This document shows positions 28-54,905 of a stretch of DNA of 64,000 nt, piece by piece. The notes under the pieces were generated by a model. The model was not told the DNA's origin. It ran no database searches and saw nothing but the letters and a program-made list of their open reading frames with translations. How positions within the stretch are numbered: position 1 is the stretch's first letter; the number at the start of each line of letters is the position of its first letter. Source of the DNA: Tubulanus polymorphus. Lineage: Eukaryota > Animalia > Nemertea. The position numbers and the translations under genes were made by a program. Location: NCBI RefSeq assembly GCF_964204645.1, contig NC_134030.1, positions 13,510,656 to 13,574,655 on the forward strand. Direction: 5' to 3'.

Positions 28-1323
28 TTAAAACATAAAATCAATATCATCAAACTCGAAATCACTATTGTCTTCTTCATTTTCATATAATTGTTTAGGT
101 TCTTCTTCTATTCCATTTTTTTCATTTAAATAAAGTTCTATCTTGTTCCACATTTCATCTCGCTCTCTTTGTTTCTTTTTGTTTGTTAATTCATCAAATA
201 GAATTATAATATCAAGGTTTAAATAATTTACAATCTTATTTAAAAAGAATTCATAATTTATTGAATCTGTTATTCTATTTTCTAAATGATACATTAATAT
301 TTGTTTGAATATTTTTTTTATATTTTCTATATCTTTTTCTGTTAATTTAGGTTTTTCATAATAATCGTTAAATAATAAATATAAATACATTTTCTTTTGT
401 TTTGTGTTAAATGTTGATGGAATAATTGTTTTTATAATATCTTTTTTAGTTATTTCACCATTTTCATTTTCTATTATTTTCATTTCTTCAAGCCATTGCA
501 TATATTCTGGTGTATGATCTTCTATAGAAAATGTTTTAAAAATTTCATCAAGATAATTTAATTTTGGATCTATGAGAAAATCTCTAGTTTTTTCTTCACC
601 CCATAAATTCCTTTGCCATCCACAATCAACACAAAATAACACAGGACCTTCTTGTCTTAAGGTCGTATAATAACATTGTGGGCATTTTTGTTTATAAATT
701 ATTGGTAATAGATCTTCATTAAGCTCTTGGTATTTTCTTACGTTTTCTTTATGTTTTATTGTTCTATTATGTAGATTTGAATTACTTGATGTAATAATCA
801 ATTTACAATATTTACAATAATATGTTTTTCTTGTTAATTCATTATATTGTTTTCTAACTTTTCAACTGTTTCTTCATTATCTGGTAACGTTTTTTCATAT
901 TTTATTTTTTCTAATATATTATTTTTTCTTTCATTGAATTCAGTTTCAAATTTATTAGAAATTTTATCTATATGTACTTTACGAAATTGATGATTCTCCC
1001 AATCTTCTATATTTTCGGGGTTATATTTTATTTGACAAGGCTCACAGAAATGATCTTTTATTTTATCCTTATCATAGAATAAGAAAGGTCTTTTCCAAAT
1101 AATTTCAGGTTCAACTTCAACAGAATTATTATCAACATTAGCCATTGCACCATTAATTCTACACTTCTCTGAATGTTTTTTAACATAATTTCTTGAGAAT
1201 AATTTATTACAATTTGGGCAGTTTAGTTTAGGGGGTTTATAATTTTCTTCATGTTTTTTCATATGTCGAGCCATATTACTTTTACTTCGAAGTTCACCAC
1301 AAATTTCACATGCTATCTTCCAT
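28..1323 (-). pseudogene. Multi-zinc-finger protein with C-terminal VLTF3 (poxvirus A2)-like domain; frameshifted, joins ORFs 834-1274 and 28-801
   Basis: TAAATG start at 1323. Fingers: CEICG..H..H, CPNC..H..C, CEPC..H..H, and CKYC..H..H (in frame just upstream of 801). These are followed by a CPQC..CVDCG ribbon and PKLTEKDIENIKKIFKQI / SINYEFFLNKIVNYL / KKQRERDEMWNKI, matching the VLTF3 C-terminal pattern. Confidence 0.65.
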
Positions 1324-1391
1324 TTATTAAGGAAAAATTTTATTAAAATTAATTTTTAGTGATGAGCGGTAATTTTTTTATGTTATAAATA

Positions 1392-2147
1392 ATGGTAGAA
1401 TTAAAAGAATACAGAATATTTGTTGATTCTAGAAAACTTACAAATTATAAATCACATTATTTACTAGTACAATTAGATAGAGAATTCAAGAATTGTGTAG
1501 ATTTAAAATTAGTTAATATAAGTTTATGTAATTCTTTTCATAATATATCGAATAAAAGTCTTGATCATTTAGCTTTTAAAATTCATGTTAGAAATTTGAA
1601 TAAATGGTTTCATCTTTATCTAAAACCAGGATTATATAATTTAGAAACATTAGCGCAAGAAATTAATAGAAGAGCTCGTTTAAAAATGGGTGCAGCTGCT
1701 AGATTTGAAATTAAATTTATCAAAAGTGATAGTTCGAATAAAATAAGAATAAAGTTAACTAATGAACAACATAGATTTCTAGTAAGAAAACCTTTAGCTA
1801 AACTGTTTGGAATTCTCCCGGATAGAGATTATTCAAGTATCGAAACTTATACAAATTTAATGACTTTTACACATTTTTATATTTATTGTAATTTAATCAA
1901 TCCTACAAAAACATTTGAAGCAACTAAAGATACAACATGTAATTCTAGTATAGTAAATATTTTACCATTAAAAAATGTTAAACAATTTGGAACGCAAATA
2001 AATTATAATTTAGCTGAATGTGATTTCAAACCTTGTATTCCTCAATTTAATAATTTTAAATTAGAAATAAGAAATCATAATGGATACTTAATTGATTTGA
2101 ATAACTTTCCTGTAATTTATGAATTAGTTATAAGATGTAAAGAGTAA
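1392..2147 (+). CDS. Minor capsid (penton-like) protein
   Basis: 251 aa with IFVDSR..., LKPGLYNL, FYIYCNLI, ILPL and KLEIRNHNGYLIDLN, the single-jelly-roll minor capsid pattern of Polintons/virophages. Homologs in B and C. Confidence 0.75.
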   Translation: MVELKEYRIFVDSRKLTNYKSHYLLVQLDREFKNCVDLKLVNISLCNSFHNISNKSLDHLAFKIHVRNLNKWFHLYLKPGLYNLETLAQEINRRARLKMGAAARFEIKFIKSDSSNKIRIKLTNEQHRFLVRKPLAKLFGILPDRDYSSIETYTNLMTFTHFYIYCNLINPTKTFEATKDTTCNSSIVNILPLKNVKQFGTQINYNLAECDFKPCIPQFNNFKLEIRNHNGYLIDLNNFPVIYELVIRCKE

Positions 2148-2163
2148 TTTTTCGCCTATATAA

Positions 2164-2517
2164 ATGAATATAACTGTTGGACCGAGTATATGTTTTGGGT
2201 TTGATTTTAAACGTGAGAAAGAAATAAAATTTAACATGAATGATGTAATTACACATATCAAAAATATTGCATTTTCTAATGAAACAACATTTGAGTATGA
2301 AACAACAATAGATAAAGAAACTTTAAATGTAGAAAAGATTACTAATTTAATTAGAGAATCTTTAAGATTTTATGAATTAGATGAAGATTTTATCATCGAT
2401 GATATTAAAAAAATAATAATTGAAATATATACAAATGAAACTAGTAATAAAATAAATGTTGAATTAATCATCACTAAGATAACAAAATATTTTGAAGATA
2501 GTAATTTTTTTGATTAA
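2164..2517 (+). CDS. Hypothetical viral protein
   Basis: Intact ORF with TAAATG start; homologs at 18279 and 53759. Confidence 0.6.
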   Translation: MNITVGPSICFGFDFKREKEIKFNMNDVITHIKNIAFSNETTFEYETTIDKETLNVEKITNLIRESLRFYELDEDFIIDDIKKIIIEIYTNETSNKINVELIITKITKYFEDSNFFD

Positions 2518-2520
2518 TAA

Positions 2521-2742
2521 ATGAGTGATAATAAGTGGATAATAACTGGATTATATAATGGCGCATTACTATCAGTTGGAACTGTTGGTAATTCAATGGT
2601 ATTAAAAAAAGTATTCAAAATGGGAAGTGTTAATGTTGATAGATTTGATATCAATGATATTTTGAAATTAACGTTAGCAGTTACTTTATCTAATTTAACA
2701 ATTGATTATTTGGAAAAACAAAAATATATTCCTCCCATATAA
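2521..2742 (+). CDS. Small hydrophobic viral protein
   Basis: 73 aa, hydrophobic segments, TAAATG start; homologs at 18637 and 53417. Confidence 0.6.
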   Translation: MSDNKWIITGLYNGALLSVGTVGNSMVLKKVFKMGSVNVDRFDINDILKLTLAVTLSNLTIDYLEKQKYIPPI

Positions 2743-2766
2743 ATGCATAATTTTTTTGCTAAATAA

Positions 2767-3189
2767 ATGGCTTCTGCAATTATAACTATTATAGGATCGG
2801 CAATTGTTAACGCTTTAGCATTTACTGGTGGTGGTTATTTATTTAAACATATTGATAAAAATAGTTCATTAGGAGAACAAAGAAGACATAACTTAGCGTT
2901 AGAGAAATACAATAAAGCTGCAGAAGAATATAGAGAAAAGAGACAAAACTATATGGATTACATCAATAAAGAATTATATGATCAGAAGATTTCACATAGA
3001 GATTTTCAATCAGTTGATGATGCAATGAGTTTATATAACGCAGTAACAAATAAAGAAAAATTACATCTATACAAACCTAAATTACCAGATTATTATACCC
3101 CAAGTAAAGAACAACAGAAATATGAAATAATTTGGATTTTAGGTGGAACAGTTATTGTTATATTTGTTGCTTATAAGTTTACTAATTAG
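2767..3189 (+). CDS. Small membrane protein with coiled coil
   Basis: N- and C-terminal hydrophobic helices; homologs at 18856 and 53171. Confidence 0.7.
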   Translation: MASAIITIIGSAIVNALAFTGGGYLFKHIDKNSSLGEQRRHNLALEKYNKAAEEYREKRQNYMDYINKELYDQKISHRDFQSVDDAMSLYNAVTNKEKLHLYKPKLPDYYTPSKEQQKYEIIWILGGTVIVIFVAYKFTN

Positions 3190-3208
3190 TAATTTTTATT
3201 CTAAATAA

Positions 3209-3643
3209 ATGGAAGATAAAGTTGATAGCATTGATATTATTCCTCATGATATAAATAAAACTAAATTAAAAACATATTTAGAAAAACAAATATTAGAATT
3301 TGAAAGTGACTTAAAGATAAAAAAGAAAAAATATTTAAAAAGTAAAATTATATATTATTTGATTATAAGTGGTTCGGTTACAATTAGTTCTGTAATAACA
3401 TTTTTAGCAATATTCAGCCCATTAACACCTTTAGCTATTTCAATTGGTGTATTAGGATTAAGTTCAAGTGTTTTAACCGGTATAAGTTCAAAATTAAATA
3501 TAAAAAGTAATAAAGAAAAAATTAAAACTAATATAAAAGAAATTAATAAATTAAAGAATACACTAGATTATATAATAAGTTTAAATGGCCATATAACAGT
3601 TGAAGAACAAGATAAATTATTAAAAGAATTAATAAATTATTAA
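3209..3643 (+). CDS. Two-TM membrane protein
   Basis: Two adjacent hydrophobic helices flanked by coiled coils; homologs at 19298 and 52288. Confidence 0.7.
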   Translation: MEDKVDSIDIIPHDINKTKLKTYLEKQILEFESDLKIKKKKYLKSKIIYYLIISGSVTISSVITFLAIFSPLTPLAISIGVLGLSSSVLTGISSKLNIKSNKEKIKTNIKEINKLKNTLDYIISLNGHITVEEQDKLLKELINY

Positions 3644-3659
3644 TTTTTTAGTTATATAA

Positions 3660-4961
3660 ATGGGGTTTCCAAAAGCTTTCCAATATAATAAATCAATTAA
3701 ATATAATATTCCGGCAATAGATTTTAAGAAAAATATTACGTATAAAAATGTAGTTTTAAATTCATTAACTAATTTAGAAATTTATGTTACTGAATCACAG
3801 TTTTTTATTTCTAAAATGGAAAATATATTTAATACATATGAAGTTACTTTTACTCGAGATGAATATCATATATATAAAGTAAAATCTAATATGAAATATT
3901 GGCAGAATCAATTAAATTTTGCTGTTTATTGTGCAACAACAGGATGTGGAATAAGTTGGAATGATAATTTAAATAACTTAGATAAAAATTTGAAGTATTC
4001 TGATTTAAAATTAATTCACACAATATTTAGATTTCACACATATTTTCAAATCAGAATTATATTAAATGAATTAGAATGTCCTTTACCCGGGTCTAAATAT
4101 TTTAAAGAATTGGATAATAATATTAATATATCCAAGTTTTATAAAATATGTAATGAATTTAATATAAATATTAATTCCGATTTCAGAGCGCATGGTAAAT
4201 TGCAAGGTGTTGGTGAACAGTATGAAATAAAAAGAATTGATTATATGCATAGAATTGGAGCTTATCATAATTATAAAATTGATAATAATAATGGTTGGGT
4301 TAATTTCATTTTAGAAAATGGTGAAGGTTTTACAAAATCAGGTATACAAAGAATAAATCAATCTATTAGAATTTATTTGATATGTATTTTAGGCGCTCAA
4401 GTTGAAACAAGATCCCCAATAATTGGAAATGATAACACTTCATTCGATGCGCAGAAACAGTTTAAAGTTTTATTTGAAGATTCAATTCATAATGATAAAA
4501 ATAGATCGATTCCAGAAAACATTATAAGATATCAAAATTATTTAGATAAATCTCATGTAAGACTTAATTATTGTATAGGCCCTAATCTATTAATTATTTC
4601 TAATGATTTAGTATTAAAGATGGGAAACATAATTGGTTATAATAATCTAATTAAAACTGCAACAATAAATAATTCATTTGGATTAAATGATATAAATAAA
4701 AAGATTATTACTGCTCCAAAATTAATGGAAGGTGAAAAAAATAAAAAACACATTCAATCAACTGAAACTAAAACTAATAATATTAAATTGGATAATGATT
4801 CCAAAATAAAAGATTACAATACTACAGAAAATATTAAAACTGATAATATTCAACATGATATAATTAAAACTGATAATGATAATAAATCCCATGAAAATAC
4901 TAAATTAGCTATAACTTGTATAGGAATTGTAATCGGAGGAATATTATATTTTAAATTTTAA
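3660..4961 (+). CDS. Conserved viral protein with C-terminal TM anchor
   Basis: 433 aa intact, YWQNQLNFAVYCATTGCGIS motif, C-terminal hydrophobic tail; broken homologs in B and C. Confidence 0.7.
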   Translation: MGFPKAFQYNKSIKYNIPAIDFKKNITYKNVVLNSLTNLEIYVTESQFFISKMENIFNTYEVTFTRDEYHIYKVKSNMKYWQNQLNFAVYCATTGCGISWNDNLNNLDKNLKYSDLKLIHTIFRFHTYFQIRIILNELECPLPGSKYFKELDNNINISKFYKICNEFNININSDFRAHGKLQGVGEQYEIKRIDYMHRIGAYHNYKIDNNNGWVNFILENGEGFTKSGIQRINQSIRIYLICILGAQVETRSPIIGNDNTSFDAQKQFKVLFEDSIHNDKNRSIPENIIRYQNYLDKSHVRLNYCIGPNLLIISNDLVLKMGNIIGYNNLIKTATINNSFGLNDINKKIITAPKLMEGEKNKKHIQSTETKTNNIKLDNDSKIKDYNTTENIKTDNIQHDIIKTDNDNKSHENTKLAITCIGIVIGGILYFKF

Positions 4962-4978
4962 TTTTTTTTATTATATAA

Positions 4979-6417
4979 ATGGATGTAGAAGGTGGAGAAG
5001 ATATTGGAATGGATAATTTTGATGAACCTGACATAACTGATGAACAACCACCTGATTTTGATGAAACAAGTTTCAGTAACGAAAATGAAACAGCATATAA
5101 TTCTAATTTAGCAAGACCTGATACTAATGAATATGTTAATAAAGCACGTTCAAGATTGGACATTGAAAATGAAAATCCAGATTTAATGAAAAAAGAACTA
5201 GAATATGACGAATTAACAGATAAATTCAAACCAATATTAGAAAAATCTGGATTCAATATAACAAATAAAGGTGTGAATTATTTAGTAAAAGATTTGAAAT
5301 ATTTAAATGGTGATTATTATTGGCATTTGAAAGATGACTATTATTTTAAGATTTCTTCTAATAAAAGTCTTGATAAAATAATAACAAAATCAACTTTTAT
5401 TAAATTAGAACAATCTAGAATTAAGAAAATCAATAATGATGTTATAACTGTTGTTACAGAAGAAGAGATAAATCAAAATAGAAGAGAATTTAATCGAAGA
5501 AATAATGATTTTTTGAAGATAATTAATGAAAATTTTGAACCAGAAACAATTCCTAAAGAAGATAAAACTTCCAAAACTAGTACACCTAATTCAAGAGAAA
5601 TTCAAACTAAAAAACTTTTACCGAAGGGATTACTTGATGCAACAGATCAACAATTAGAAGATTTAAATATATTTTCTGATAAAGCAATTAGAGAAATTAT
5701 TAGTATAAGACTTGCATCTGATAAAATTGCGCATGATAAAAGTATAAGAGATTTTAAAATTAGAACTTGATAAAAGAATTAACTGGTAAAAATAAAGAAA
5801 TAGAACAATTAAAGTCTGATTTAGATCATCAAGTAATTGATGAAATAGAATATAAGCAAAAAGAATTACGTTTAGAAAAAGAAATAGATGATTTAAAATA
5901 TAACAAAGAATTACAAAAAGAAGAAAGAGATACATTGTTAAAATCATATGATTATAATATTAATAGATTAAAAGTTATTTTTAAAGATTTGTTGATTAAA
6001 CCAAATCCTGAAATATCATTAAAAGACAGAATAAGATTATTATTTAAATTAGAAGGAATAACAATTCTTTCAATTCTAACAGCTGTAACTATGTTATTTA
6101 CAACAATTGGTTTAGCAATATCAAATGCTTTGAAATCTACTCCTACTCCCAATAAACCAGATAAACCTCCAGGCAATAATTCTATACAAGATAAAGTTAA
6201 GGATGGTTTAAAAAAATTAGCAAAATATTTATGGGAACTATCTAAAAAATCTGCTGCAGCTTTACCAGGAGTTATTGCTTCAATTGTTGGTTTTATATTG
6301 AAATCTGCAGGAAACATTCTTAACTTTGCCGCTGAACATATTATTTTATTTTTAATTACAGTTGTAAGTGCTATTATTTTTGGGTTAGTAAACATGATAT
6401 CAAAAAATATCAAGTAA
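4979..6417 (+). pseudogene. Acidic N-terminus, coiled-coil, C-terminal membrane protein (frameshift near 5768)
   Basis: ORFs 4979-5770 and 5767-6417 together match the single ORF 49547-50932; 1-bp deletion relative to copy B. Confidence 0.75.
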
Positions 6418-6458
6418 ACCATGATAAAAAATAAATAATTAATTTTTTTGTTAAATAA

Positions 6459-7706
6459 ATGAGTGGGAGTTATATAAGTCCTTCTAAGATTTCTAGAATA
6501 TCTAATGCTATTAAAGCAGAAAGATCACATCATATAATTACTCATAACCCTTCAAATATTAATCTCGATGAAACTTTATATGTTAGAATTCCTAGATTAA
6601 CACAAAATACTTTTTATGTTCCAAACAGTATTTATTTATCAGCTGATATAAAAGTAACTGGCCATGATAACAATTATGTTGTTGATAATGTTGGGAGATA
6701 TTTGATTAAAAAATTAATTATAAAGATTGGTCCAGAAACAGTTTTCTCATTAGATGATTATAATTTATTTATGCATTATAAAGATTTATGGTTAACTAAA
6801 GAAAATAGAAATAATATGATATTCCAAGGTATTCAATCGGTAAACCAAAATAAATTAAGATCTGAAGCCAATAATGCAGTAGTAGCTAATGACGTAGATA
6901 ATTTGATTAAAAAGATTTATGGAAGCAAATATAAAATTCCATTAGATTTTGAATTGATAAATAATAATGCACCTTTATATAAATACGCAATTCAAGAAGA
7001 TATTATATTTGAGATAACATTTGCTCCTGTAAATGAAATTGTATTATCTAGCGTTGTTAAAGATATGGGTTATAGATTATCGAATATATGTTTAGAATAT
7101 AACACAGTAACTAATGAAAATATTGCTAGCACAATTCAAACTCAATACAATCAAGGATTTTCATTATTATATGATTATATTGATAAATTTAAAACTGTAA
7201 CTATTAATGCAAATGATGAAATAATTAATGAGAATATTAACTTTCCTAGAAGATCTATTAAAGGTATATTAATATTTTTTACCATTGCAACATATTCTAA
7301 TGGCGCAATAAATGTTGATAATTATTATAATCCTGAAATAACAAAAGTAGAAATAACTATCGAAGGAATAGCGAATAAAATATTTTGCCAAGGAATGAGA
7401 ATGATTGATCAATGGCCAGAAATTAGAAAACATTTTATGAACGAAAAAGTGAAATCATCTGAAAATTGTAATATTAATCAAATTGATTATTATACTGGTA
7501 ATAAATATGCATTATGGTTAGATTTTAGAACAACAGAGGATAATTCATTACATGGTTCTGGAAAAAAACTACAGAACACTAAAGATGGAATACAATTATT
7601 CATGAAAAAGAAAAAAGGAATCAAAAATTTTAAAATGCACATTTATATTATATCTGACGCGCAATTAAATATTGTAAATTCACAATTAGATAGTATTCAA
7701 TATTAG
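6459..7706 (+). CDS. Major capsid protein (double jelly-roll, Polinton-like)
   Basis: 415 aa, beta-rich, intact, located between the membrane-protein module and the integrase; NPS, YKIPLDF, LWLDFR motifs; three copies in the window. Confidence 0.75.
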   Translation: MSGSYISPSKISRISNAIKAERSHHIITHNPSNINLDETLYVRIPRLTQNTFYVPNSIYLSADIKVTGHDNNYVVDNVGRYLIKKLIIKIGPETVFSLDDYNLFMHYKDLWLTKENRNNMIFQGIQSVNQNKLRSEANNAVVANDVDNLIKKIYGSKYKIPLDFELINNNAPLYKYAIQEDIIFEITFAPVNEIVLSSVVKDMGYRLSNICLEYNTVTNENIASTIQTQYNQGFSLLYDYIDKFKTVTINANDEIINENINFPRRSIKGILIFFTIATYSNGAINVDNYYNPEITKVEITIEGIANKIFCQGMRMIDQWPEIRKHFMNEKVKSSENCNINQIDYYTGNKYALWLDFRTTEDNSLHGSGKKLQNTKDGIQLFMKKKKGIKNFKMHIYIISDAQLNIVNSQLDSIQY

Positions 7707-7736: not shown

Positions 7737-8864
7737 ATGGGTGGTAAAAAAACTCCTAATACTAAAGAACAATATTTAAGAAATTTATATTACAACCCTG
7801 AGAGTTCGGTTGCTTATTCTTCTACTAAAAATATATGGCGTAAAGTAAAACAAGATAAATTAGATAAGCTAATCCCACAAAATTTAGTTAAATATAAAGA
7901 TATAAATGAATTTATGTTAGAACAACCAACGTATACAACACATAAAAAAATTGTTAGAAAATATAAAACTCGTAAAACTATGGTAAGTTATGTAGATCAA
8001 CAGTGGCAAGGAGATTTAATTGATATGAAAAATCTTTAAAAAGATAATAATGATTATTGGTGGATATTGAATATAATTGATATTTTTAGTCGTTATGTAT
8101 GGAGCTTCCCACTTTATAGAAAAGATGCTGCACAAACATCACATGTTTTAAGAAAATTTCTTTCAGGTGGTAAACTAAAACCAGAAAAAATTCAATTTGA
8201 TGATGGAAAAGAATTTGATAATTCATTAGTTCATGGACTTTTAGATTTTCATAATATTAAATATTTTTCGACAAAATCGGATAAAAAAGCAGCAGTTGTT
8301 GAACGATTTAATAGAACATTAAGAACAAGAATGTGGAAATATTTTACAGCAAATAATACTTTTAAATGGATTGATGTTTTACCAAAATTTATAGAAGGAT
8401 ATAATAATTCTTATCATTCTTCTATTGGAATGAAACCTATTGATGCTAGAAAACCTGAAAATGCTGAAATTGTTTGGAATAATTTATATGGAGCATTTCT
8501 TGTTGATGATTTTGGTGAACCTAAATTTAAAGTTGGTCAAAATGTTAGAATTTCTAAGTATAAAAAGATATTTGATAAAGGATACGATCGAAATTTTACT
8601 AGAGAAATATATAAAATAAAAAAGGTAATAACAACTAAACCATATTTCTATAAATTAGAAGATTTAGATGGTGAAGAAGTTGATGGCTACTTTTACGAAG
8701 AAGAATTAAGTTTAACTACTGAAAATCTAGAACAAGAATATAAAATTGAAAAAGTATTAAAAACAAAAACTATTAAAAGAAAATAATATTCTTTAGTAAA
8801 ATGGGTTGGATGGCCAGATAAATTTAATGAATGGATATTATCAAGTAAAATTAAAAATATATAA
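7737..8864 (+). pseudogene. rve (DDE) integrase with C-terminal chromodomain, two in-frame stops
   Basis: QWQGDLIDM, IDIFSRY, QFDDGKEF, VERFNRTL, LVKWVGWPDKFNEW; stops at 8037 and 8784. Confidence 0.92.
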
Positions 8865-9473
8865 ATGAATAAGGAATTATTTATATTTGAGCCTCATAAT
8901 ATGTTAATTTCTGGTGTAACAAATTGTGGAAAAACTTATTTTATATTAAATTTATTAGAAACTGTTTATGAAAACTAGTTTGATAATATAGTATTATTTT
9001 GTCCAACATATGAATTTAATCAAACTTATAATAGAAATATTACTAGAAATAATAAATTTATTATATTAGATCCTAAAACAGTAAAAGAAAATTTAGATAA
9101 TTGTATAAAAATAGCAATTGATATTTATAAAGGATCAAATACATTATTCATTATAGATGATTGTGCTAATCTACATGATTCAATAGTTAGAGAAAGTGAG
9201 TTATGTTATTTAGCTTTTTCTGGCAGACATTTTGGGATAACAACTTGGGTTTTAAATCAAAAATATAATTCAATTGTTAAAGACTTTAGAGAAAACATTA
9301 GATTTCTAGTTTTATTCTACAATAAAGATAGAAAATCGATGAAAAATGCACTTGAGGAAAATGATATTATTCCACATGATTTACATAATGAATATATGGA
9401 TAAGTTGAAAAATATTAAAAGATCAAAATTACTATTTAGATTACAACACCCATTTAAATATGAATTTATTTAA
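8865..9473 (+). pseudogene. A32/FtsK-type packaging ATPase, one premature stop
   Basis: Walker A GVTNCGKT, Walker B FIIDD, GRH motif; TAG near 8976. Not in the ORF track. Confidence 0.9.
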
Positions 9474-9474
9474 A

Positions 9475-18262: not shown

Positions 18263-18278
18263 TTTTTTCACTATATAA

Positions 18279-22555: not shown

Positions 22556-22583
22556 AAAAATAATTAATTTTTTTGTTAAATAA

Positions 22584-23624: not shown

Positions 23625-23656
23625 AATTTTAACTTTAATAAAAATTTATATAATAA

Positions 23657-40912: not shown

Positions 40913-40933
40913 AGTAAAAAATACATATAATAA

Positions 40934-42824: not shown

Positions 42825-42830
42825 AATAAG

Positions 42831-45800
42831 ATGAAAAAAGAACAATATTTAAGAGAGTTATATTACAACCCAGAAAGTGAAGCATCATATTCTAACGTTT
42901 CAGAATTATGGAATAAAATTAAATCTGATAATGAAAATGGTAATATAAAATATAGTGAACTAAGATTATGGTTACGAAATCAACCAACATATCAAATCCA
43001 CAAGAAAATGGATACAAGAGCCCCAAGGGGCACAATGGCCAGCCTGTCAGATTTGCTTTTTATAAATGATGTAATCTGTGGGTTATATTTATCAATATAC
43101 ACTCCCTGCTCAATGTCATTTACATAGTACAATCGTGTGTTAACACAGACAGCAGGAGCGAATGTTATATAGAAATACTAAGTTATTGTATTGTTCAACG
43201 CCCCTGGTGGCCATATACAAAAACCAATGAGCTTGAAACTCACCAAGATCATAGACCATGTCATGAGCTACAACCTTCCAATTGATTGTGGTAGCAAAAT
43301 ATGCATAGGTACGAATGTAATATAGAAATACTAAGTTATTGTATTGTTCAACGCCCCCTGGTGGCCATAAACAAAAACCAATGAGCGTGAAACTCACCTC
43401 AATCATAGAACATGTCATGAGCTACAACTTTCCAATTAATTATGGTAGCAAAATATGCTTAAGTATCAAAATGATGTGGCAAAACTTTTTTTTTCCACTA
43501 CGAATGAGTACTGATGACCCCAAGATGGCCGCCAATTGCGTCATAATTGCCTGGTCAAAAATACCCTCTCGGATATAAAAGATCCTTTTCCAAAGAATAC
43601 CCATTACAAATTGCAATGAAAAATGGCACACCATTAGAAAGCTACAGGACTCAGAATTCAGGCCAAAATTAACATTTTTGGGAACAAAAAAGGTCACAGG
43701 ACGGCCATCTTGAGTCCGATCGACCCAATTTTTCTCATGCCGATGGGCCCTTGGGGGATACAAATATATACGAATGATCAAGGTTATTGATAAAAGTGTC
43801 TTCAAAATTTCCCTCGAAAACTTCTAAAATGTGTAAAAAGTGCTGATTTTGGCGAACAACAATGGCTGCCAGTCGGCCATCTTGAATCTGACAGGGCCAG
43901 TTTTTGGCCTGAAGATGTGTCTAGGGTAGATACACGTATAAACCAAATATCAAGACATTACCTTGAAGCGTCTTCAAAACTTTGGAACTCTCACGAACTA
44001 TCTAGATGGTTATCTCTCGACCTCAATAGCTTCAAGACCCATCTCAAAACAACTTTGTTCCATGCAGCATACCATTAACTCTCGGAAAGCGAATTGGATT
44101 TAACATTTTTTTTGGCAGAATAAAATTTGATTGAATTTGCAATTCGAGCACATGGCTAATTAGCATATCAAGTTCATACACTCGATTTGGGAAAAGAAAT
44201 TTTTCGCGAACCTTGCGCAATTGTCAAGGATGAATTTTCTGTAGAGCAAATAAAAATTCCTCCCAAACACCAAATCAACTAAAGATTTCATAGAAATCGA
44301 TCTTGAAATACGATTTTAAATCTTGAAATAAAACCCGGAAGTAAAACAATAGACGATACCGCGGGTTCACGTGAACACCTGATTTCTGTAAACGAAATGT
44401 TGGTTGTGACAAAATTGTTCAGACGGTTTTAGGTGGTAATAAGTACGGAAACGTAACGACCATGGTCGACTTATTCGATGAAATCAGGCCTATGTGATAT
44501 CCAAATTTTGACTTTTTTATTCTCCAGACCTCCCTGATATAGAAATAAAAAATTTTGGTGGTACGAATAGTGCAATCACAGCGCCGACGGCGACAGAGCC
44601 GTGTCAGAGATCGGCGGAGTGAAAATTGCGGAGGTGGACGAACACGAAGAAGTAGGCTATTGAGCTACTTGAATCGCGAAAACTCCTGGCGCGGCCCCGA
44701 CGCTTTTCGTTGATTAAGTAGTACAAATATCAAGCAATGGGTTTTCACAATCTACCGCCGGTGTTTACCGGATTTCAATATCACTCCAAAATTCAAAGAA
44801 ACCTCGAAATATCGAACTGCAACACTTTCGAGAGATATCCGCAGCTGCCCAACCGGGAAACTTATTTGTTGATAGGATCCATCATCCCGTCAAGGGATTC
44901 GAACCCACTAAGCTAAAGCCGTGCCAGAATCGGGTCGGGCCAATCACAGCGCTTGTAACAAACCACATTAGGCTTCTGTGGAATTTCCCAGTAAATGGGC
45001 CAATCAGCGAACACGTAGCGAACGCGGAAGTCGCATGTTGATACATGACGTCATGCGCAAAAGCGCCAGTAATGAAATCACGATAATTCACGTGAACAGC
45101 TGCTGATATTTTTAGATAAACCAGGGAAGTGTGATGACTCATCACACTTCCCTGGATAAACCAATCACAGGGAAGACACAACTTCCTGATTGGCTGATAA
45201 AAATTGAAATTTTCCCGATTTTATTTTCGTGAAAAATGCAGAAAACATTTTTATGAAAGCCTATTTCAAAATTCTGCTCGCTACGATTCCGAGAATGCAT
45301 TACGCTTAAATACGTGATTTGTTCGAATATGCCCTCACTTGGCAAGCAAAAGAGCCTTTTGTGTGGAAACCATGTCATTTAAATTCGCTCCATTTGTATA
45401 GTAATAGGCTCAGCCTACGGCTGGCCTAAAAACTTATTTAACAAGAAAAGTTATGGTTTCATATATCGATCAACAATGGCAAGCAGATTTAATTGACATG
45501 AAGAACTTAGAAGAATACAACAAAGGATATTTCTGGATATTAAATGTTATAGACATATTCAGTAGATACGCATGGTCAATTCCAATCAAAAATAAAACTG
45601 GAATAGAAGTGACAAATGCTTTTAAATCTATATTTAAAGAAGCTATTCCAGATAAGATAACGATGTAGATTATTTTTCAACACATTCAGATAAAAAAGCA
45701 TCTATTATAGAAAGATTTAATAAAACATTGAAAACTAGAATGTGGAAATATTTTACTGCTAATGAAACATATAAATATATCGATGTGTTAGATGATTTAG

Positions 45801-46279
45801 TGAAAGGTTATAATAATTCTAAACATAGTTCTATAAATATGAAACCTATACAAGCTAGAAAAGAAGATAATTCAGAAAAAGTTTGGAATAATTTATATAG
45901 AGCGTTTGTTACACATGATTTTGGAGAACCTAAATTTAAAATTGGACAACACGTTAGAATATCTAAATATAGAAAAACCTTTTACAAAGGTTATACCCCT
46001 AATTTTACTGAAGAAATATTCAAGATTAAAAAGATAATATTAACTAAACCTTTTGTTTATAAACTAGAAGATCTAAAAGATGAAGAAATATTAGGTTATT
46101 TCTATGAACACGAATTATCACTTGTACCAAATCCAGATGAAATAGAATACAAAATAGAAAAAGTATTGAAAACAAAAACTCTTAAAGGAAAAAAGTATTC
46201 TCTGGTGAAATATAAAGGATATGATGATACATTTAATGAATGGATTTTATCTAGTAAAATTAAAAGAATAAATGAATAA
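42831..46279 (+). pseudogene. rve integrase with chromodomain, interrupted by Helentron-like insert and a small deletion
   Basis: N-terminus 42831-43013, resumes at 45429; QWQADLIDM, IDIFSRY, ERFNKTL, LVKYKGY..FNEW. Confidence 0.9.
43014..45428 (-). mobile_element. Helentron-like family 1, second full copy
   Basis: Reverse complement of 26884-29102 with the same termini and a different target site. Confidence 0.82.
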
Positions 46280-46883
46280 AGATTTATTTATATTTGAACC
46301 GCATAATATGTTAGTTACTGGACTAACCAATTGTGGTAAAACACATTTCATATTAGATTTGTTAGAAACTATTTATAAGAATCATTTTGATAATATAATA
46401 TTATTCTGTCCTACTTATGAAATGAATAAAACATATGATAGGGATATAGTTAAAATAAAAAAGTTTATTATATTAGATCCTAAAACAGTAAAAGAAAATT
46501 TAGATAATTGTATAAAAATAGCAATTGATACATATAAAGGATCAAATACATTATTCATTGTAGATGATTGCGCTAATTTACATGATTCAAAAGTGAGAGA
46601 AAGTGAGTTATGTTATTTAGCTTTCTCTGGGAGACATTTTGGGATAACAACATGGGTTTTAAATCAAAAATATAATTCAATTGTTAAAGGCTTTAGGGAG
46701 AATATAAGATTTCTAGTTTTATTCTACAATAAAGATAGAAAATCTATGCAACAATCATTGGAAGAAAATCAAATTATACCTACTGAATTACATGATGAAT
46801 GTATGAATAAATTAAAGAATAATAAAGGTTCAAAATTATTACTTAGGCTTCAATTTCCCTATGAATATAAATTTATAAAATAA
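46272..46883 (+). CDS. A32/FtsK-type DNA packaging ATPase
   Basis: Intact 203 aa: GLTNCGKT, FIVDD, GRHFGI, NQ. Confidence 0.92.
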   Translation: MNKDLFIFEPHNMLVTGLTNCGKTHFILDLLETIYKNHFDNIILFCPTYEMNKTYDRDIVKIKKFIILDPKTVKENLDNCIKIAIDTYKGSNTLFIVDDCANLHDSKVRESELCYLAFSGRHFGITTWVLNQKYNSIVKGFRENIRFLVLFYNKDRKSMQQSLEENQIIPTELHDECMNKLKNNKGSKLLLRLQFPYEYKFIK

Positions 46884-47276
46884 CTTTTTGTATACCTATG
46901 TATTAGATACCCTATTAGATACCCTAATACCTGATACCCTATTAGATACCCTATTAGATACCTTAAATACTTAAAACCCCCTTTTTTAAAATAAATATTA
47001 TTTATACAATTTTCAACCAATTTATTTTTATTTTTTCAACTAATATATGAATAAGTTTGAAAATAATAAAGGTTATTTATTATTACTGAGCTTTCAATAT
47101 AAATTTTAAAAGAAATATAATTTAAGGTATTTTCAAATAATATGTATTAGATATGTATTAGATATGTATTAGATACCTTAAATACCTTAAATACTTAAAA
47201 CCCCCTTTTTCATTTACTATTATTTTTTACAATTTTCAACTAATATTATTATTTGAGTTAAATATAATTAATATTT

Positions 47277-48172
47277 TAATCACTTTCACTATCATAACCT
47301 AACATTTTTTCAAATTCTCTACCGAATTTTCTTCTTCAAATTCTTTATTATTTTCATACTTATTTATTCACCCTTTTTACCGCATCATCAATAGTTGTTT
47401 CATTGTTATGCTTATTCATCCAATCAAATTTATCATTATTTTCTACTTTATGTTTCATAGAATCTTTATTATCAATATCTGTAACTATATTTTCATTATT
47501 ATCTTTATTAGTGTTTGCTCCTAATATTTCATTTACAATGTTTGATCCTAATATTTTATTAGCATCGGTTAAATCTAATTCATCTTTATTAGGTGTTGCT
47601 AATAATAAATCTTCATATAATTCTTTACAATTTACTTTTTTATTTGAAACAAACTTTGTAACATATATAAATGGGTGTTCTATAAATTCTCTTAAACCAA
47701 CACGTTCTATTACATTAGTAATATGTACCTTTGTATTCATATGTTTATTCCAATTTGATGGAGCGTTTGAAAATTCACCTTTACAATGATCACAATAATT
47801 TCAATTTTCACTAATATTTAATATTATTTCATTATTAGATGTAGAAGGTATTACATTATTAGATGTAGAAGGTATTGCATTATTAGATGTAGAAGGTATT
47901 ACATTATTAGATGTAGAAGGTATTACATTATTAGATGTAGAAGGTATTACATTATTAGATGTAGAAGGTATTTCATTATTATCAATTACATTACTTAAAT
48001 TATCAACAACACCACTTTTATTATTATCGATTTCTATTAGTTTAGTTTTATAAATTTTGAAAATAGGATCAAATATCAAAGCTATATTACAAGGTATTAC
48101 ATAATATAAACCATCATTATTTTCATGTGTATCGATGTATGGAATATGTTTATATACTTTACCTCCTACCAT
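47277..48172 (-). pseudogene. Zinc-finger protein with NNVIPSTS repeats
   Basis: Homolog of 23657-24479, broken near 47800. Confidence 0.6.
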
Positions 48173-48204
48173 TTATTATATAAATTTTTATTAAAGTTAA
48201 AATT

Positions 48205-49451
48205 TTAATACATAACACTATTTTATTGAGAATTTACAATATTTAATTGCGCGTCAGATACAATATAAATGTGCATTTTAAAATTTTGATTCCTTTATTC
48301 TTTGTCATGAATAATTGTATTCCATCTTTAGTGTTTTGTAGTTTTTTTCCAGAACCATGTAATGAATTATCCTCTGTTGTTCTAAAATCTAACCATAATG
48401 CATATTTATTACCGATATAATAATCAATTTGATTAATATTACAATTTTCAGATGATTTTACTTTTTCATTCATAAAATGTTTTCTAATTTCTGGCCATTG
48501 ATCAATCATTCTCATTCCTTGACAAAATATTTTATTTGCTATTCCTTCGATAGTTATTTCTACTTTTGTTATTTCAGGATTATAATAATTATCAACATTT
48601 ATTGCACCATTAGTATATGTTGCAATGGTAAAAAATATTAATATACCTTTAATAGATCTTCTTGGGAAGTTAATATTCTCATTAATTATTTCATCATTTG
48701 CATTAATAGTTACAGTCTTAGATTTATCAATATAATCATATAATAAATAAAATCCTTGATTGTATTGAGTTTGAATTATACTTGAAATATTTTCATTAGT
48801 TACTGTATCATATTCTAAACATATATTCGATAATTTATAACCCATATCTTTATTAACGCTAGATATTACAATTTCATTAACAGGAGCAAATGTTATTTCG
48901 AATATAACGTCTTCTTGAATTGCGTATTTATATAAAGGTGCATCATTATTTATCAATTCAAAGTCTAATGGAATTTTATATTTGCTTCCATATATACTTT
49001 TTATCAATTTATCTATAGCATTAGTTAATATTGCATTATGTGCTTCTGATCTTAATTTATTTTGGTTTTCTGATTGGATGCCTTGAAATATCATATTATT
49101 TCAATTTTCTTTAGTTAACCATAAATCTTTATAATGCATAAATAAATTATAATCATCTAATGAGAAAACTGTTTCTGGACCGATCTTTATTGTTAATATT
49201 TTAATCAAATATCTTCCAACATTATCGACAACATAATTATTATTATTACCGTTTACTTTTATATCGGCTGATAAATAAATACTATTTGGAACATAAAAAG
49301 TATTTTGTGTTAATCGAGGAATTCTAACATATAAAGTTTCATCGGGATTAATATTAGAAGGGTTGTGAGTAATTATATGATGTGATCTTTCTGCTTTAAT
49401 AGCATTAGATATTCTATGATTCTTAGAAGGATTGATATAACTCCCACTCAT
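48205..49451 (-). pseudogene. Major capsid protein (stop near 49101, 3' frameshift)
   Basis: ORFs 49101-49451 and 48243-49094 match 6459-7706. Confidence 0.8.
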
Positions 49452-49479
49452 TTATTTAACAAAAAAATTAATTATTTAT

Positions 49480-52400
49480 TTTTTATCATGTTTACTAACC
49501 CAAAAATAATTGCGCTTACAACTGTAATTAAAAATAAAATAATATGTTAAGCAGCAAAGTTAATAATGTTTCCTGCAGATTTCAATATAAAACCAACAAT
49601 TGATGCAATAACTCCTGGCAATGCTGCAGCAGATTTTTTAGATAGTTCCCATAAATATTTTGCTAATTTCTTTAAACCATCCTTAACTTTATCTTGTATA
49701 GAATTATTATCGGGGGGTTTATCTGGTTTATTGGGAGTAGGAGTAGATTTCAGTGAATTTGATATAGCTAAACCAATTGTTGTAAATAACATAGTTACAG
49801 CTATTAGAATTGAAAGAATTGTTATTCCTTCAAACTTAAATAATAATTTTATTCTATCTTTTAGTGATATGTCAGAATTTGGTTTTAGTATTAACTCTTT
49901 AACAACAACTTTTAATCTATTAATATAATAATCATATGATTTTAATAATAATTTCGTTTTTTCTTTCTGAAATTCTATGTTATATTCTAAATCATCAATT
50001 TCTTTTTCTAAATATGCATTTCCTTTTTTAAATTCAATTTCTTCAATAAATTTAAATTCTCTATCTAATTTTAATTTTTCTAATTCTTTTCTGGTGTCAA
50101 ATAATTTATTTTCTAAAGGTTTAATTTTATTATATCTAATATTTTTTTCGCGCGCAATTTTATCGGCTTCATTTCGTATACTTATTATTTCTCTAATTTT
50201 TTTTTTAGAAAACATACTTAATGCTTCTATTTCTTGATCTGTTGCATCAAGTAATCCATTCGGTAAAAGTTTTTCAGTTTGAACTTCGTTTGATTTAATT
50301 TTACTAGTTTTGGAAGTTTTATTCTGTTCAGAAGTTGTTTCTGTTTCTGAATTTTTATTGATTATTTTTAATAAGTCATCAATTCCTTGACTAAATTCTG
50401 TTATATTATCATCTCTTTCTTTTTGTGTAACATCAGTTATTTCATTACTATTACTTATTCTCTTAATTCTAAATGTTTCTAAATTTTTCAAAGTTGATTC
50501 CGCTAATATTTTATTTAGTCTTGTTCTTTGATTAGTGATGTCAATATAATAATCACCATCCAAATGATAATAATATTTACCTTTTAAAAGTTTTAAATTT
50601 TCTTCTAAACGTTCAGTATCTCTATCATTTATATTATACCCAGATCTTTCAAATACAGGTTTGAATTTATAAATATATTCATTATATTCTAAATTTTTCT
50701 TTAATAAACCTGGATTTTCATTTTCAGTATCTATTCTCGATTTAGCTCCTCTAATATATTCATTTGTTGATGGGGCTTTAGAACCACTATCTACTAAATT
50801 AGAATTATATGCTGATTCATCATCATTATCAATATTAGTTTCATTTAAATTGGGTTGCGGTTCATCATCAATATATCCTTCATTATTATTTCCCATGTTT
50901 TCCATTTCATAATCTTCTCCACCTTCTGCCATTTACATAATAAAAAATTAAAATTTAAAATATAATATTCCTCCGATTACAATTCCTATACAAGTTATAG
51001 CTAATTTAGTATTTTCATGGGATTTATTATCATCATTTAGTTTAATTGTATCATGTTGAATAATATCAGTTTTTATATTTTCTGTAGTATTATAATCTGG
51101 TTTAGAATCATTATTTAATTTAATATTCTTAGTTTTAGTTTCTGTTGATTGAATATGTATTTTATTTTTTTCACCTTCCATTAATTTTGGAGCAGTAATA
51201 ATCATTTTATCTATATCATTTAATCCAAATGAATTATTTATTGTTGCAGTTTTAATTAGATTATTATAACCAATTATATTTCCCATCTTTAATACTAAAT
51301 CATTAGAAATAATTAATAGATTAGGGCCTATACAATAATTTAATCTAATATGTGATTTATCTAAACAATTTTGATATCTTGCAATGTTTTCTGGAATCGA
51401 TCTATTTTTATCATTATGAATTGAATCTTCAAATAATACTTTGAATTGTTTCTGTGTATCAAATGTGATGTATTTAAATTTCCAATTATTGGGGATCTTG
51501 TTTCAACCTGTGATCCTAGAATACATATCAAATAAGTTCTAATAGATTGATTTATTCTTTGTATACCTGATTTTGTAAAACCATCATTATTTTCTAAAAT
51601 GAAATAAACCCAACCAATATTGTTTTCTTGTTTTAAATGATCATAAAATTTCGGTAATTTATTGAATTTTAATGTTTAGATGGTATTGGAAGTGTACAAT
51701 ATTGTAAAATATTTTCAGGACAAGGAAGTGATCTTATTGTTCCAATTTTTGTTCTAAAATCAGAATTATTTATATCCATATTTAATTCATTGCAAATTTT
51801 ATAAAACTTTGATAAATTGATATTATTATCTAATTCTTTAAAATATCTAGATCCTGGTAAAGCACACTCTAATTCATTTAATATTATTCTGATTTGAAAG
51901 TATGTATGAAATCTAAATAAACTTTGAATTAATTTATATTTAGAATTATTCAAATGATCATTCCAACTAATTCCACATCCTGTTGTTGCACAATAAACAG
52001 CAAAATTTAATTGGTCCTGCCAATACTTCATATTATATTTTAATAACCATTGTTTTTCATCTTTCAATTTTTAAAAATTAATTAAATATACATAAAATAT
52101 ATTTTCCATCTTTGCATTAAAATTATTAGTTTCAGTAACATAAATTTCTAAATTAGTTAATGAATCTAAAACTTCATTTCTATACGTAATATCTTTATTA
52201 AAATCTATTGCTGGAATATTATATTTAATTGATTTATTATATTGGAAAGCTTTTGGAAAACTATCTACCATTTATATAATTAAAAAATTAATAATTTATT
52301 AATTCTTTTAATAATTTATCTTGTTCTTCAACTGTTATATGACCATTTAAACTTATAATATAATCTAGTGTATTCTTTAATTCATGAATTTCTTTTATAT

Positions 52401-53759
52401 TAGTTTTAATTTTTTCTTTATTACTTTTTATATTTAATTTTGAACTTATACCAGTTAAAACACTTGAACTTAATCCTAGTACGCCAATTGATATAGCTAA
52501 AGGTGTCAATGGACTGAATATTGCTAGAAATTTTATTACAGAACTAATTGTAACTGAACCACTTATAATCAAATAATAATTAATTTTAGATTTTAAATAT
52601 TTTTTCTTTTTAACTTTTAAATCATTTTCAAATTCTAATATTTGTTTTTCTAAATATATTTTATTAATATAATTTAGTTTTATTTATATCATGAGGAATA
52701 ATATCAATATTATCAACTTTATCTTCCATTTATTTAGAAAAAAAATTACTAATTAGTAAATCTATATGCTACAAATATAACAATAACTGTTTAGCCTACA
52801 ATCCAAATTATTTCATATTTCTGTTGTTCTTTACTTGGGGTATAATAATCTGATAATTTAGGTTTGTATAGATGTAATTTTTCTTTATTGGTTACCGCGT
52901 TATATAAACTCATTGCATCATCAACTGATTGAAAATCTCTATATGAAATCTTCTGATCATATAATTCTTTGTTAATATAATCCATATAGTTTTGTCGTTT
53001 TTCTCTGTATTCTTCTGCTGCTTTATTATATTTCTCTAATGCTAAGTTATGTCTTCTTTGTTCTCCTAATGAACTATTTTTATCAAAATGCTTAAATAAA
53101 TAACCACCACCAGTAAATGCTAGAGCGTTAACAATTGCCGATCCTATAATAATTATAATTGCAGAAGCCATTTATTTAGTAAAATAATTACGCATTTATA
53201 AGGGAGGAATATATTTTTGTTTTTCTAAATAATCAATATTTAAATTAGATAAAGTAACTGCTAATGTTAATTTTAAGATATCATTTATATCAAATCTATC
53301 AACATTAACAGTTCCCATTTTGAATACTTTTTTTAATACCATTGAATAACCAACAGTTCCAACTGATAGTAATGCGCCATTATATAATCCAGTTAATATC
53401 CACTTATTATCACTCATTTATTTATAAAAAAAATTACTATCTTCAAAATATTTAGTTAACTTATTTATGATTAATTCAACATTTATTTAATTACTACTTT
53501 TATGATTATCATATATTTTGGTTAATATGTTTTTAATATCATCAATAATTCCATCTTCATTTAATTCATAATATTCTAAAGGTGATTTAATTAAATCAAT
53601 TACTTTTTCTATATTATAATTTTCTTTATTAATCATTGATGCATTGTTAAATGATTTACTTTTTATATCAGTAATTACATCATTTAGTTTAATTCTCATT
53701 TCTTTACCATGTTTAAAATCAAATCCAAAACATATACTCGGCCCAACAGTTATATTCAT
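49480..53759 (-). pseudogene. Membrane/structural gene block of copy C (six genes, mostly with lesions)
   Basis: Gene-by-gene homology to 2164-6417. Confidence 0.8.
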
Positions 53760-53775
53760 TTATATAATAAAAAAA

Positions 53776-54508
53776 TTACTCTCTACATCTTATAACTAAT
53801 TCATAAATTACAGGGAAATTATTTAAATCAATTAAGTATCCATTATGATTTCTTATTTCTAATTTAAAATTATTAAAACGAGGAATGCATGGTTTGAAAT
53901 CACACTCGGCTAAATTATAATTTATTTGTGTTCCAAATTCTTTAACATTCTTCAATGGTAAAATGTTTAGTAAACCAGAATTACAAGTTATATCTTTAGT
54001 TGCTTCGAATGTTTTTGTAGGATCAATTAAATTGCAATAAATATAAAAATGTGTAAAAGTCATTAAATTTGAATTACCTTCTACGTTTCCTGTAACAATT
54101 TCTGGTTTAATTCCTAACAATTTAGCTATTGGTTTTTTTACCATAAAAGAATGTTCATTTTCATCATCTAACTTTATTTTCATTCTATTAGTGCTATCAC
54201 TTTTCATAAATCTAATTAAAAATTTATCTTCACTTCTAATTTTCAACCGTGCTCTTCTATTAATTTCTTGCTCCAATGTTTCAATACTATATAATCCTGT
54301 TCTTAGATATAAAGTAATCCATTGTTTTTTTTTTAAATTAAAATCAAAAAAGCATTATCTTCAGCAGTTTTATTTGAAATATTATAAAAAGAATTACATA
54401 AACTTATATTTACTAATTTTAAATCTACACAATTCTTAAATTATGTGATTAATAATTTTTAAGTCTTCTAGAATCAACAAATATTCTGTATTCTTTTAAT
54501 TCTACCAT
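53776..54508 (-). pseudogene. Minor capsid protein (5' lesions)
   Basis: Homolog of 1392-2147, TAAATG start at 54508. Confidence 0.78.
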
Positions 54509-54525
54509 TTATTTTACATATTTTA

Positions 54526-54876
54526 TTCGAAATCTATTTCATGGTGTCCTTTTTCATTCTAACCTTTGTATATGAAATAGAAATCTCCAGAACATAATTC
54601 TTCTAAATCTTCACTTGATAATCTATGAAATCTATCCGGTAAATATGTTCTGAATTTATGTGCATTTCCTTTTAATCCTTCATATTCTAAGTGGATAACT
54701 AATTTATCTCCATATTTGTTAGTAACTGTATCAATATTTGTAATTAGATATTTCTTATGGATTATTAATTCTTTTAACTTCTTAAATTTATAATCTACTG
54801 ATTTGACATTTGAAGGAACTTTTATTCTATCTAGAAATAATTTGTTGTTCTCACTGTGTGTTTGTTTACTCTCCAT
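54526..54876 (-). pseudogene. Possible OB-fold ssDNA-binding protein (late stop)
   Basis: TNKYGDK, YLPDRF, FIYKG; immediately downstream of PolB. Confidence 0.5.
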
Positions 54877-54905
54877 TTATAATACATATTTTTATTAAAA
54901 TTTGA

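Follow-up and report, generated by a model that had tools for sequence, protein, structure and literature searches.

A candidate poxvirus-type promoter at the gene starts of protease-less Polinton-like proviruses in the nemertean Tubulanus polymorphus

The stretch analysed here, called the window throughout, comprises 64,000 nucleotides of the nemertean Tubulanus polymorphus (GCF_964204645.1, contig NC_134030.1, positions 13,510,656 to 13,574,655) and holds four related copies, A to D, of a protease-less, integrase-bearing Polinton-like provirus. The element codes for a DNA polymerase B of the protein-primed kind (pPolB), a retrovirus-type (rve) integrase, an A32 packaging ATPase, an EndoVII-like nuclease and a double jelly-roll (DJR) capsid, and nearly all of its genes begin within the hexamer TAAATG, behind a short and recurrent upstream core. 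The copies were delimited by comparison of the window with itself and by tblastn; long matches between them are 84-97% alike, and they are arranged as follows:

1 to ~12170: copy A, truncated by the window edge
17200..30790: copy B, with the gene order of D and without the PolB end; 13 of 14 starts at TAAATG
32630..35790: copy C, partial, of A's subfamily; all 4 starts within its span at TAAATG
40275..60637: copy D, the sole Polinton-like provirus running from terminal inverted repeat (TIR) to TIR, complete by TIR match

Copy D measures ~18 kb once a 2.4-kb insert (43018-45425) is discounted; its ends read AGT..ACT inside a 6-bp target duplication, GGGGGT, and 302 reads connect its left flank directly to its right flank, representing empty sites as judged by eye. 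The genes of B and D are arranged as two blocks, each directed inward from the TIRs. Many genes of D are disrupted by stops and frameshifts, and broken genes occur in every copy; all the copies here are damaged, and would be relics of the promoter and helper system proposed below. The integrase region of B (26880-28962) carries an insert of ~2 kb related to that of D (93% alike), the two lying at different positions.

Start codons were assigned by tblastn homology between the copies, which gave 50 starts in 18 gene families. The start codon lies within TAAATG at 46 of them, compared with 94 of the 1,596 ATGs elsewhere in the viral DNA (Fisher p 5e-48, for copies that are not independent of one another), and TAAATG is the majority form in 17 of the 18 families (binomial p 2e-20). 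Out-of-frame ATGs on the sense strand have it in 22 of 240 cases and ATGs in non-viral DNA in 17 of 597, and when the starts' own 20 upstream nucleotides were shuffled 10,000 times, TAAATG appeared at 4.4 of the 50 on average and never at more than 14. Enrichment over composition-matched ATG contexts, proposed as a check in an earlier note on this DNA, was thus found with all such controls. That note had placed the motif at nearly every viral gene, and the thirteen starts it listed in A (1323, 2164, 2521, 2767, 3209, 3660, 4979, 6459, 7737, 8865, 9757, 10295 and 12086) are all correct, but it omitted a start at 1392 (TAAATAATG) which lacks the exact motif. This is one of four starts outside TAAATG, the others being PolB (TAAAATG) and two integrases (TAAGATG at 26593 and 42831, with TAAA a few bases upstream); the remark that PolB and the B/C integrase depart from the exact motif is borne out at these sites, but the TAAA initiator is still present at PolB and the integrase reads TAAATG at 7737, 38388 and 63738. 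Intergenic gaps, put at 3-40 bp, are 3-41 bp at 8 of 11 junctions in A, but two genes overlap a neighbour and one gap is 280 bp.

The upstream core spans ~20 nt per gene and consists of AA, a T-run or an A-run, a fixed T and a spacer of ~6 nt before TAAATG. Three places in A illustrate it:

1320..1394: back-to-back promoter pair, TAAATG at 1323 (- strand) and TAAATAATG at 1392 (+ strand)
6441..6461, + strand: T-run type promoter of the capsid gene, made up of AA, a T-run, a 6-nt spacer and TAAATG
8844..8867, + strand: A-run type promoter (AAAA core, TAAATG) before the ATPase gene, overlapping the integrase end

A T-run of at least five precedes 25 of the 46 true TAAATG starts and 3 of the 94 background TAAATG. 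The T-run class, AATTTTT plus spacer, takes in 23 of the 50 starts, with a spacer of 5-7 nt in 21 of these 23 and of exactly 6 nt in 14. The upstream strings quoted earlier at 3642 and 6441 are both in place, though the statement that the motif is usually preceded by AATTTTTT goes too far: six T stand upstream at 20 of 50 starts and five at 23, but 17 have an A-run core and 10 have neither. More constant is a T at 9 nt before TAAAT, present in 40 of 46 window starts; across the window's own clade of relatives, described below, it occurs at 55 of 60 starts compared with 26 of 90 background TAAATG, and a T at 10 nt upstream at 44 of 60 compared with 28 of 90. The class of core tracks gene family, with the capsid and most membrane-type genes in the T-run class and the ATPase, the 122- and 203-aa genes, the nuclease in B and D, and PolB in the A-run class. 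A role of the T-runs as splice acceptors is ruled out, as no AG lies downstream of them, and TATAAA as a Pol II TATA box of the same gene is rejected, as it adjoins the ATG.

An alignment of the capsid retrieved 311 related metagenome stretches, of which the best 80 were taken and the 63 of at least 2 kb counted; the controls among them are sister lineages of the same family rather than group 1/2 Mavericks. The fraction of open reading frames (ORFs) starting at TAAATG is bimodal from locus to locus, with 42 loci at 0-0.14 (4 of 262 ORFs) and 21 at 0.5-1.0 (77 of 91); this split is drawn on the motif itself, and the claim is the bimodality. Among family-assigned starts, with fragments below 70% of the family median excluded, the window's clade (14 rows, support 100/99) has TAA|ATG at 54 of 62 and AAA|ATG at none, whereas an AT-rich sister group (L023-L028, L031, L033, L042 and L081) has TAA|ATG at 0 of 32. 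Here 23 of the 32 genes start at AAAATG with A-runs, a third type of start. Gene order and strand are rearranged among the relatives while TAAATG is retained, and the PolB of L070 begins at TAAATG. Back-to-back TAAATG pairs stand only 15-30 bp apart in 10 loci, a distance that leaves ordinary 5' untranslated regions without room and would require gene-internal promoters.

These counts bear on two simple explanations. The TAAATG hexamer is common in the window, as it might be if the motif were a by-product of 78% AT DNA, but the composition-matched controls all fail to reproduce the pattern, nine TAAATG-negative loci at 36% GC or less have TAAATG at 1 of 39 starts, and the TAAATG-positive loci span 20-44% GC, with L007 and L008 of the GC-richer members retaining the motif at 40-44%. 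Start and background counts, shuffles and locus bimodality together refute AT bias, to which we allow practically no chance. A translation signal appears very improbable, in the form of either stop-start coupling along a polycistronic RNA or a context of the Kozak type. It would suit the TAA immediately before ATG, the tight packing of the genes and the inward-running blocks of B and D; however, none of the 11 junctions of A and 7 of the 44 tandem starts of the loci use the TAA as the stop of the upstream gene, by which counts stop-start coupling is rejected, and the motif is retained at the first genes of back-to-back pairs. A T at -3 is moreover a weak context for eukaryotic ribosomes, the window's clade avoids the AAAATG that its AT-rich sisters favour (0/62 against 23/32), and the fixed upstream T would be left unexplained.

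The genes of the element, given here mainly for A and D, are the following:

54906..60002, - strand: protein-primed PolB, broken (Pfam DNA_pol_B_2, Endonuclease_7, zinc fingers)
55436..56500, - strand: LAGLIDADG intein within PolB, missing from many sister copies
6459..7706, + strand: DJR major capsid of 415 aa, intact in A and broken in the homologues at 22584 and 49451
7737..8872, + strand: retrovirus-type integrase with chromodomain (Pfam rve, Chromo), broken in all copies
38224-38388 and 63577-63738: pieces of the integrase 5' end
8865..9476, + strand: A32-like packaging ATPase (Pfam Pox_A32), broken in A, with open frames at 46272-46883 and 24930-25490
40934..41600, + strand: HNH/EndoVII-like nuclease (PHROGs endonuclease VII), A-run class TAAATG; also at 30084-30761 in B
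1392..6417, + strand: seven conserved genes of A, of 251 (putative minor capsid), 117, 73, 140, 144, 433 and ~460 aa
9757..12086: three more genes of A, of 201, 122 and 108 aa, each starting at TAAATG
28..843, - strand: VLTF3-like frame of a broken gene, with zinc finger, zinc ribbon and VLTF3-like C-terminal helices; copy A only

The capsid model (pLDDT 89.6) finds major capsid proteins of iridovirus, PBCV-1 (Paramecium bursaria chlorella virus 1) and mavirus by Foldseek, with E 2e-17 to those of iridovirus and PBCV-1. None of 55 family members match the Pfam model PF21738 (DJR_capsid), 30 match Capsid_N weakly, and a bivalve-named protein is 38% identical to the family. Bartonella assemblies contain close capsid relatives (55%; P0045 and its cluster members), which lie on short contigs, are annotated as hypothetical proteins and probably come from host DNA that was carried along. 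The integrase scores 30.7 bits for rve in the window, just below the cut-off, and 38.3 bits in the relative L002. Its 5' end recurs inside another repeat at 38224-38655 and 63577-64000 (98% alike), with TATAAATG and without the upstream core. The PolB intein is polymorphic between copies, being present in some and absent from others: 145 + 86 = 231 reads in run X5 omit it. It sits in the catalytic motif that also hosts the PolB inteins of giant viruses; its four relatives include none with a giant-virus name and at least two within Polinton-type PolBs, and its description as giant-virus-like no longer lends support to a poxvirus link.

In the block at 1392..6417 several genes have hydrophobic segments and six of the seven begin at a T-run TAAATG; family searches identified functions for none of the seven. 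The 251-aa gene is a candidate single jelly-roll minor capsid by its size and conservation, with no family match, and the 433-, 201-, 108- and 251-aa families gave no meaningful PDB or Pfam match. The 105-108-aa family (11760-12086 and 54559-54876) has 112 unnamed relatives and is found among the loci only in L004. An adenain-type cysteine protease has no Pfam match in the 56 window ORFs, a catalytic pattern of such proteases has no match in the six frames of the window or of 81 loci, and copy D leaves no unassigned gap above 660 bp. Two relatives of the TAAATG clade encode a deoxynucleoside kinase (L004:10340-10981 and L008:2895-3380), such as large DNA viruses typically carry as an accessory gene. 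Beside copy A, a GC-richer insert contains a 524-aa ORF (12169-13743) with a DnaJ domain and a PHD finger, probably the ORF1 of a retrotransposon. A scan of genome contigs for relatives of the element returned one 798-bp fragment, and scans of viral contigs returned none.

The ends of copy D differ in character from its interior:

40275..40940, + strand: left TIR of D, ~665 bp, the first 196 nt forming a hairpin
59997..60637, - strand: right TIR of D, facing PolB
40566..40901, + strand: cassette of host Pol II-like elements within the TIR, with its mirror image at 60040-60350 near the right end

The cassette contains a 26-bp CCAAT-box repeat in 6.8 copies, TATAAA near 40822, GC boxes and two splice-donor-like GTAAGT words, all of them putative Pol II elements. 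The claim that the element has no room for Pol II promoters therefore fails at its ends. Read depth across 60050 falls from ~1,130 to 140 (~eightfold) and 517 reads diverge at 60032, 30 nt before PolB, so that only the pox-sized core is common to most sister copies; copy B shares just the last 34 nt of D's TIR. The hairpin of the left TIR is highly stable (z -19.4, with none of 200 shuffles equally stable), but hairpin ends, also offered as support for a poxvirus connection, do not serve as such, since terminal palindromes are reported in other endogenous Polinton-like viruses (PLVs) as well (10.64898/2026.07.28.741278).

Vaccinia offers a close parallel to the promoters. Its late promoters are described as placing TAAAT+G on the start codon with a conserved T ~10 nt upstream (PMC11980589, Deng 2025) and a T core 5-7 bp from TAAAT (PMC5294985, Oliveira 2017), and its intermediate promoters as having TAAA with an A-preferring upstream region (PMC11980589). 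The core polymerase is reported to read TAAA directly, the G8R intermediate scaffold has an A-run and then TAAAATG, as in PolB here (PMC12917281), and slippage yields a 5' poly(A) leader (PMC6211774). The vaccinia A32 gene is itself an intermediate gene. The architecture in the window matches the vaccinia post-replicative type; it persists in diverged relatives and in those with more GC, and AT-rich sister lineages lack it. The proposal of late transcription by machinery from nucleocytoplasmic large DNA viruses (NCLDVs) holds to this extent, but the helper polymerase is inferred.

No RNA polymerase subunit was found by Pfam among 56 ORFs of the window, and an element without a polymerase gene must have its promoters read by something else. 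We lean towards the view that TAAATG marks post-replicative promoters of poxvirus type here and that a poxvirus-like helper supplies the RNA polymerase reading them, which would be the simplest reading by analogy with mavirus, the endogenous mavirus-like elements (EMALEs) and the pacmanvirus transpoviron, a precedent for helper-matched promoters (PMC11788076). Transcription would start inside AAA and slippage would add a 5' poly(A) leader, so that the T at -3 stays out of the mRNA; its invariance makes sense if the mRNA begins in AAA, and such a start may also allow the genes to be spaced at 3-40 bp or to stand back to back. The T-run starts of the capsid and most membrane-type genes would act as late promoters, and the A-run starts of the ATPase, nuclease and PolB as intermediate-like ones. 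The provirus would rest in the host genome, forming particles only upon infection by a helper with a pox-type polymerase, like mavirus with Cafeteria roenbergensis virus (CroV), and in some copies nuclear Pol II transcription of PolB may be driven from the CCAAT/TATA cassette that their TIRs contain.

Several observations weigh against a poxvirus-like helper. A look-up of RNA runs containing the element returned none, no helper was seen, and neither the 56 ORFs of the window nor 56 selected ones of the 521 in the loci yielded a poxvirus gene or a polymerase subunit. A-runs, at 11 of 46 starts and 10 of 94 background TAAATG, are barely enriched (p 0.047, within a range of 0.047-0.33), so that they only weakly suggest an intermediate promoter class, and the capsid-like D13 of vaccinia is an intermediate gene, whereas the capsid here is of the T-run class. 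The TAAATG-negative sisters do not differ in their gene set and have a comparable T-run upstream, as could be the case if the element had its own system, shared by the whole family. TAAAN initiators are also described for yeast linear elements with their own polymerase (PMC6211774), and the motif does not, therefore, single out Poxviridae. Stony-coral polintoviruses, of this or another family, are reported to be transcribed in ordinary coral samples (PMC11131425), and no report of a poxvirus of aquatic invertebrates was found among the titles listed in the literature searched.

The element might instead be autonomous, employing host Pol II with a VLTF3-like factor of its own, a promoter in the TIR and TAAAT as its own late initiator, its likeness to poxviruses being due to ancestry or convergence; we regard this as unlikely. 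The CCAAT/TATA/GC-box cassette in D's TIRs is its main support, and an upstream T-run is common across the family while the initiators differ. Small relatives of the NCLDVs carry VLTF2/3, and NCLDVs without a polymerase retain VLTF3. VLTF3-like genes occur in copy A and in L017 and L020, two TAAATG-negative relatives whose genes align with the C-terminal part of the frame in A, but tblastn did not find the gene in the complete copy D. The frame in A matches Pfam Pox_VLTF3 below the cut-off (E 7e-5, 23 vs 25 bits); used as a query it found no homologues, and its single-sequence model is unusable (pLDDT 36.7). This gene had been taken as a sign of pox-type transcription, which its weak match, its presence in TAAATG-negative relatives and its absence from D's search results do not sustain; VLTF3-like genes are also described in some coral polintoviruses (PMC11131425). 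Against autonomy stand further the restriction of the TIR cassette to a minority of copies, as seen in read depth, diverging reads and the short stretch of TIR in B, and the 3-nt leader that a Pol II start at AAA would give unless slippage occurred; splicing at the T-runs, with no AG after them, offers no way out.

Dependence upon a helper that is not a poxvirus, but another cytoplasmic large DNA virus or a linear element with a polymerase that takes TAAA(T) as its initiator, seems to us improbable too. Yeast virus-like elements are described as combining TAAAN with slippage (PMC6211774), the initiator is reportedly read by the core polymerase (PMC12917281), so that relatives of poxviruses may share TAAA, and no exchange of genes with poxviruses was seen in the locus ORFs and intein relatives examined. 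However, TAAAT on the start codon together with a T core is given for poxviruses only in one review (PMC5294985), asfarviruses, mimiviruses and CroV are described with other late motifs (PMC5294985, PMC7458399), and both the spacing and the fixed T agree with vaccinia in detail.

A different initiator is found in some TAAATG-negative sisters. In L017 and L020 (48% GC; L018 was left out of these counts as its capsid is the same as that of L017), TATA[G/C] lies within 16 nt of the ATG at 13 of 23 starts, compared with 17 of 703, and TTT lies 7-12 nt before TATA at 8 of 23, compared with 6 of 703. The order is T-run, ~9 nt, TATA and then ATG after 1-16 nt; the distance from T-run to TATA is fairly fixed and that from TATA to ATG variable, which points to initiator-like behaviour of TATA. 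A weaker signal is seen in L016/L022 (7 of 8) and in a large third group, L049-L078 (34 of 111). The late initiator of African swine fever virus is reported to be TATA (PMC7458399), and the promoters of L017 and L020 resemble asfarvirus late promoters in layout. On a tree of 45 capsids of at least 330 aa, TAAATG- and TATA-type rows are interleaved, with 4 changes of which at least 2 are forced by well-supported branches; a single origin of the TAAATG trait is rejected (approximately unbiased test, p 0.0053) on this one marker gene with one long branch, L036. This suggests that the initiator switched along with the class of helper, the clearest TATA signal coming from two independent loci. We entertain, as a tentative and somewhat doubtful extension, that widespread protease-less animal Polinton-like proviruses are provirophages of Pokkesviricetes, in TAAAT lineages and T-run-plus-TATA lineages whose initiator was switched repeatedly with the helper. 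If true, the promoters of endogenous copies would tell to which class a helper virus not yet discovered belongs, and the proviruses may serve as an inherited defence against it.

The TAAATG promoters bear on how Mavericks and Polintons of animal genomes are expressed and on whether any of them depend on a helper virus. With Maverick/Polinton elements (Polintoviricetes; adintoviruses, PMC8502044) the element shares pPolB, rve with chromodomain, A32 ATPase, DJR capsid, TIRs and a 6-bp target duplication, but a protease is expected there and none is found here, nor does the Pfam Polinton DJR model match. The Aquintovirus-related PLVs of octocorals, hydrozoans and bivalves (10.64898/2026.06.19.733378) are a non-Maverick group and would be a better fit for an element without a protease whose capsid family that model does not match. 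PLVs are also reported to accompany entomopoxviruses (PMC11296320), and the earlier note had asked that novelty be judged against them. As described there, AHEV_PLV1/2, CBEV_PLV1 and Ca_PLV1 are likewise small animal DJR viruses, proposed to parasitise poxviruses, with an A32 ATPase and, in two, pPolB; they differ, in this comparison by description, in having a cysteine protease, an L2-mu-like protein and (in three) a phospholipase in ~12 kb, without rve. The gene content of the present element is thus distinct, with rve present and the protease and L2-mu-like protein not. The words 'promoter', 'TAAAT' and 'motif' do not occur in the main text of PMC11296320, nor 'promoter' in the main texts of PMC8502044, PMC11131425, PMC11161782, 10.64898/2026.06.19.733378 and 10.64898/2026.10.13.758929; pox-type promoters in an animal Polinton were not found described in the literature searched, subscription journals and preprint supplements lying outside it, though a paper on freshwater virophages does contain 'taaatg'. 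The signal is real and unusually clean, this variant of the provirophage design was not found described there, and the mechanism, as read from the promoter layout, is likely but unproven.

Yeast pGKL elements are not known to be integrated, capsid-bearing proviruses. They are described as linear pPolB elements with a TAAAN initiator and slippage-derived poly(A) leaders, and differ in having their own RNA polymerase and capping enzyme and an early-type upstream element (PMC6211774). The vaccinia late and intermediate promoters, as described in PMC11980589, PMC5294985 and PMC12917281, agree with those of the window in TAAAT(G), T core with fixed T, 5-7 nt spacer, A-rich variant and back-to-back layout, but here the putative promoters lie inside an integrated 18-kb element without a polymerase. 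The 25-nt promoter is predicted to work only with a poxvirus-type polymerase and to give mRNAs with 5' poly(A).

Mavirus and the EMALEs have a virophage capsid and a protease. Those integrated in Cafeteria (PMC8547959) are described with the same combination of pPolB, rve, DJR capsid, TIRs and one short motif per gene, but in a protist host and with the 'TCTA' motif of CroV, and helper dependence has been shown there, whereas it is only inferred here. Mavirus and EMALE types are reported to carry different motifs, taken as matching different giant viruses (PMC8547959; 10.1101/2025.10.09.676808). If a poxvirus-like helper is indeed involved, a provirophage system in the style of mavirus would reach from protists to animals and poxviruses, promoter type would indicate helper class across this family of elements, and the TAAATG of T. 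polymorphus would point to unsampled poxvirus relatives of invertebrates.

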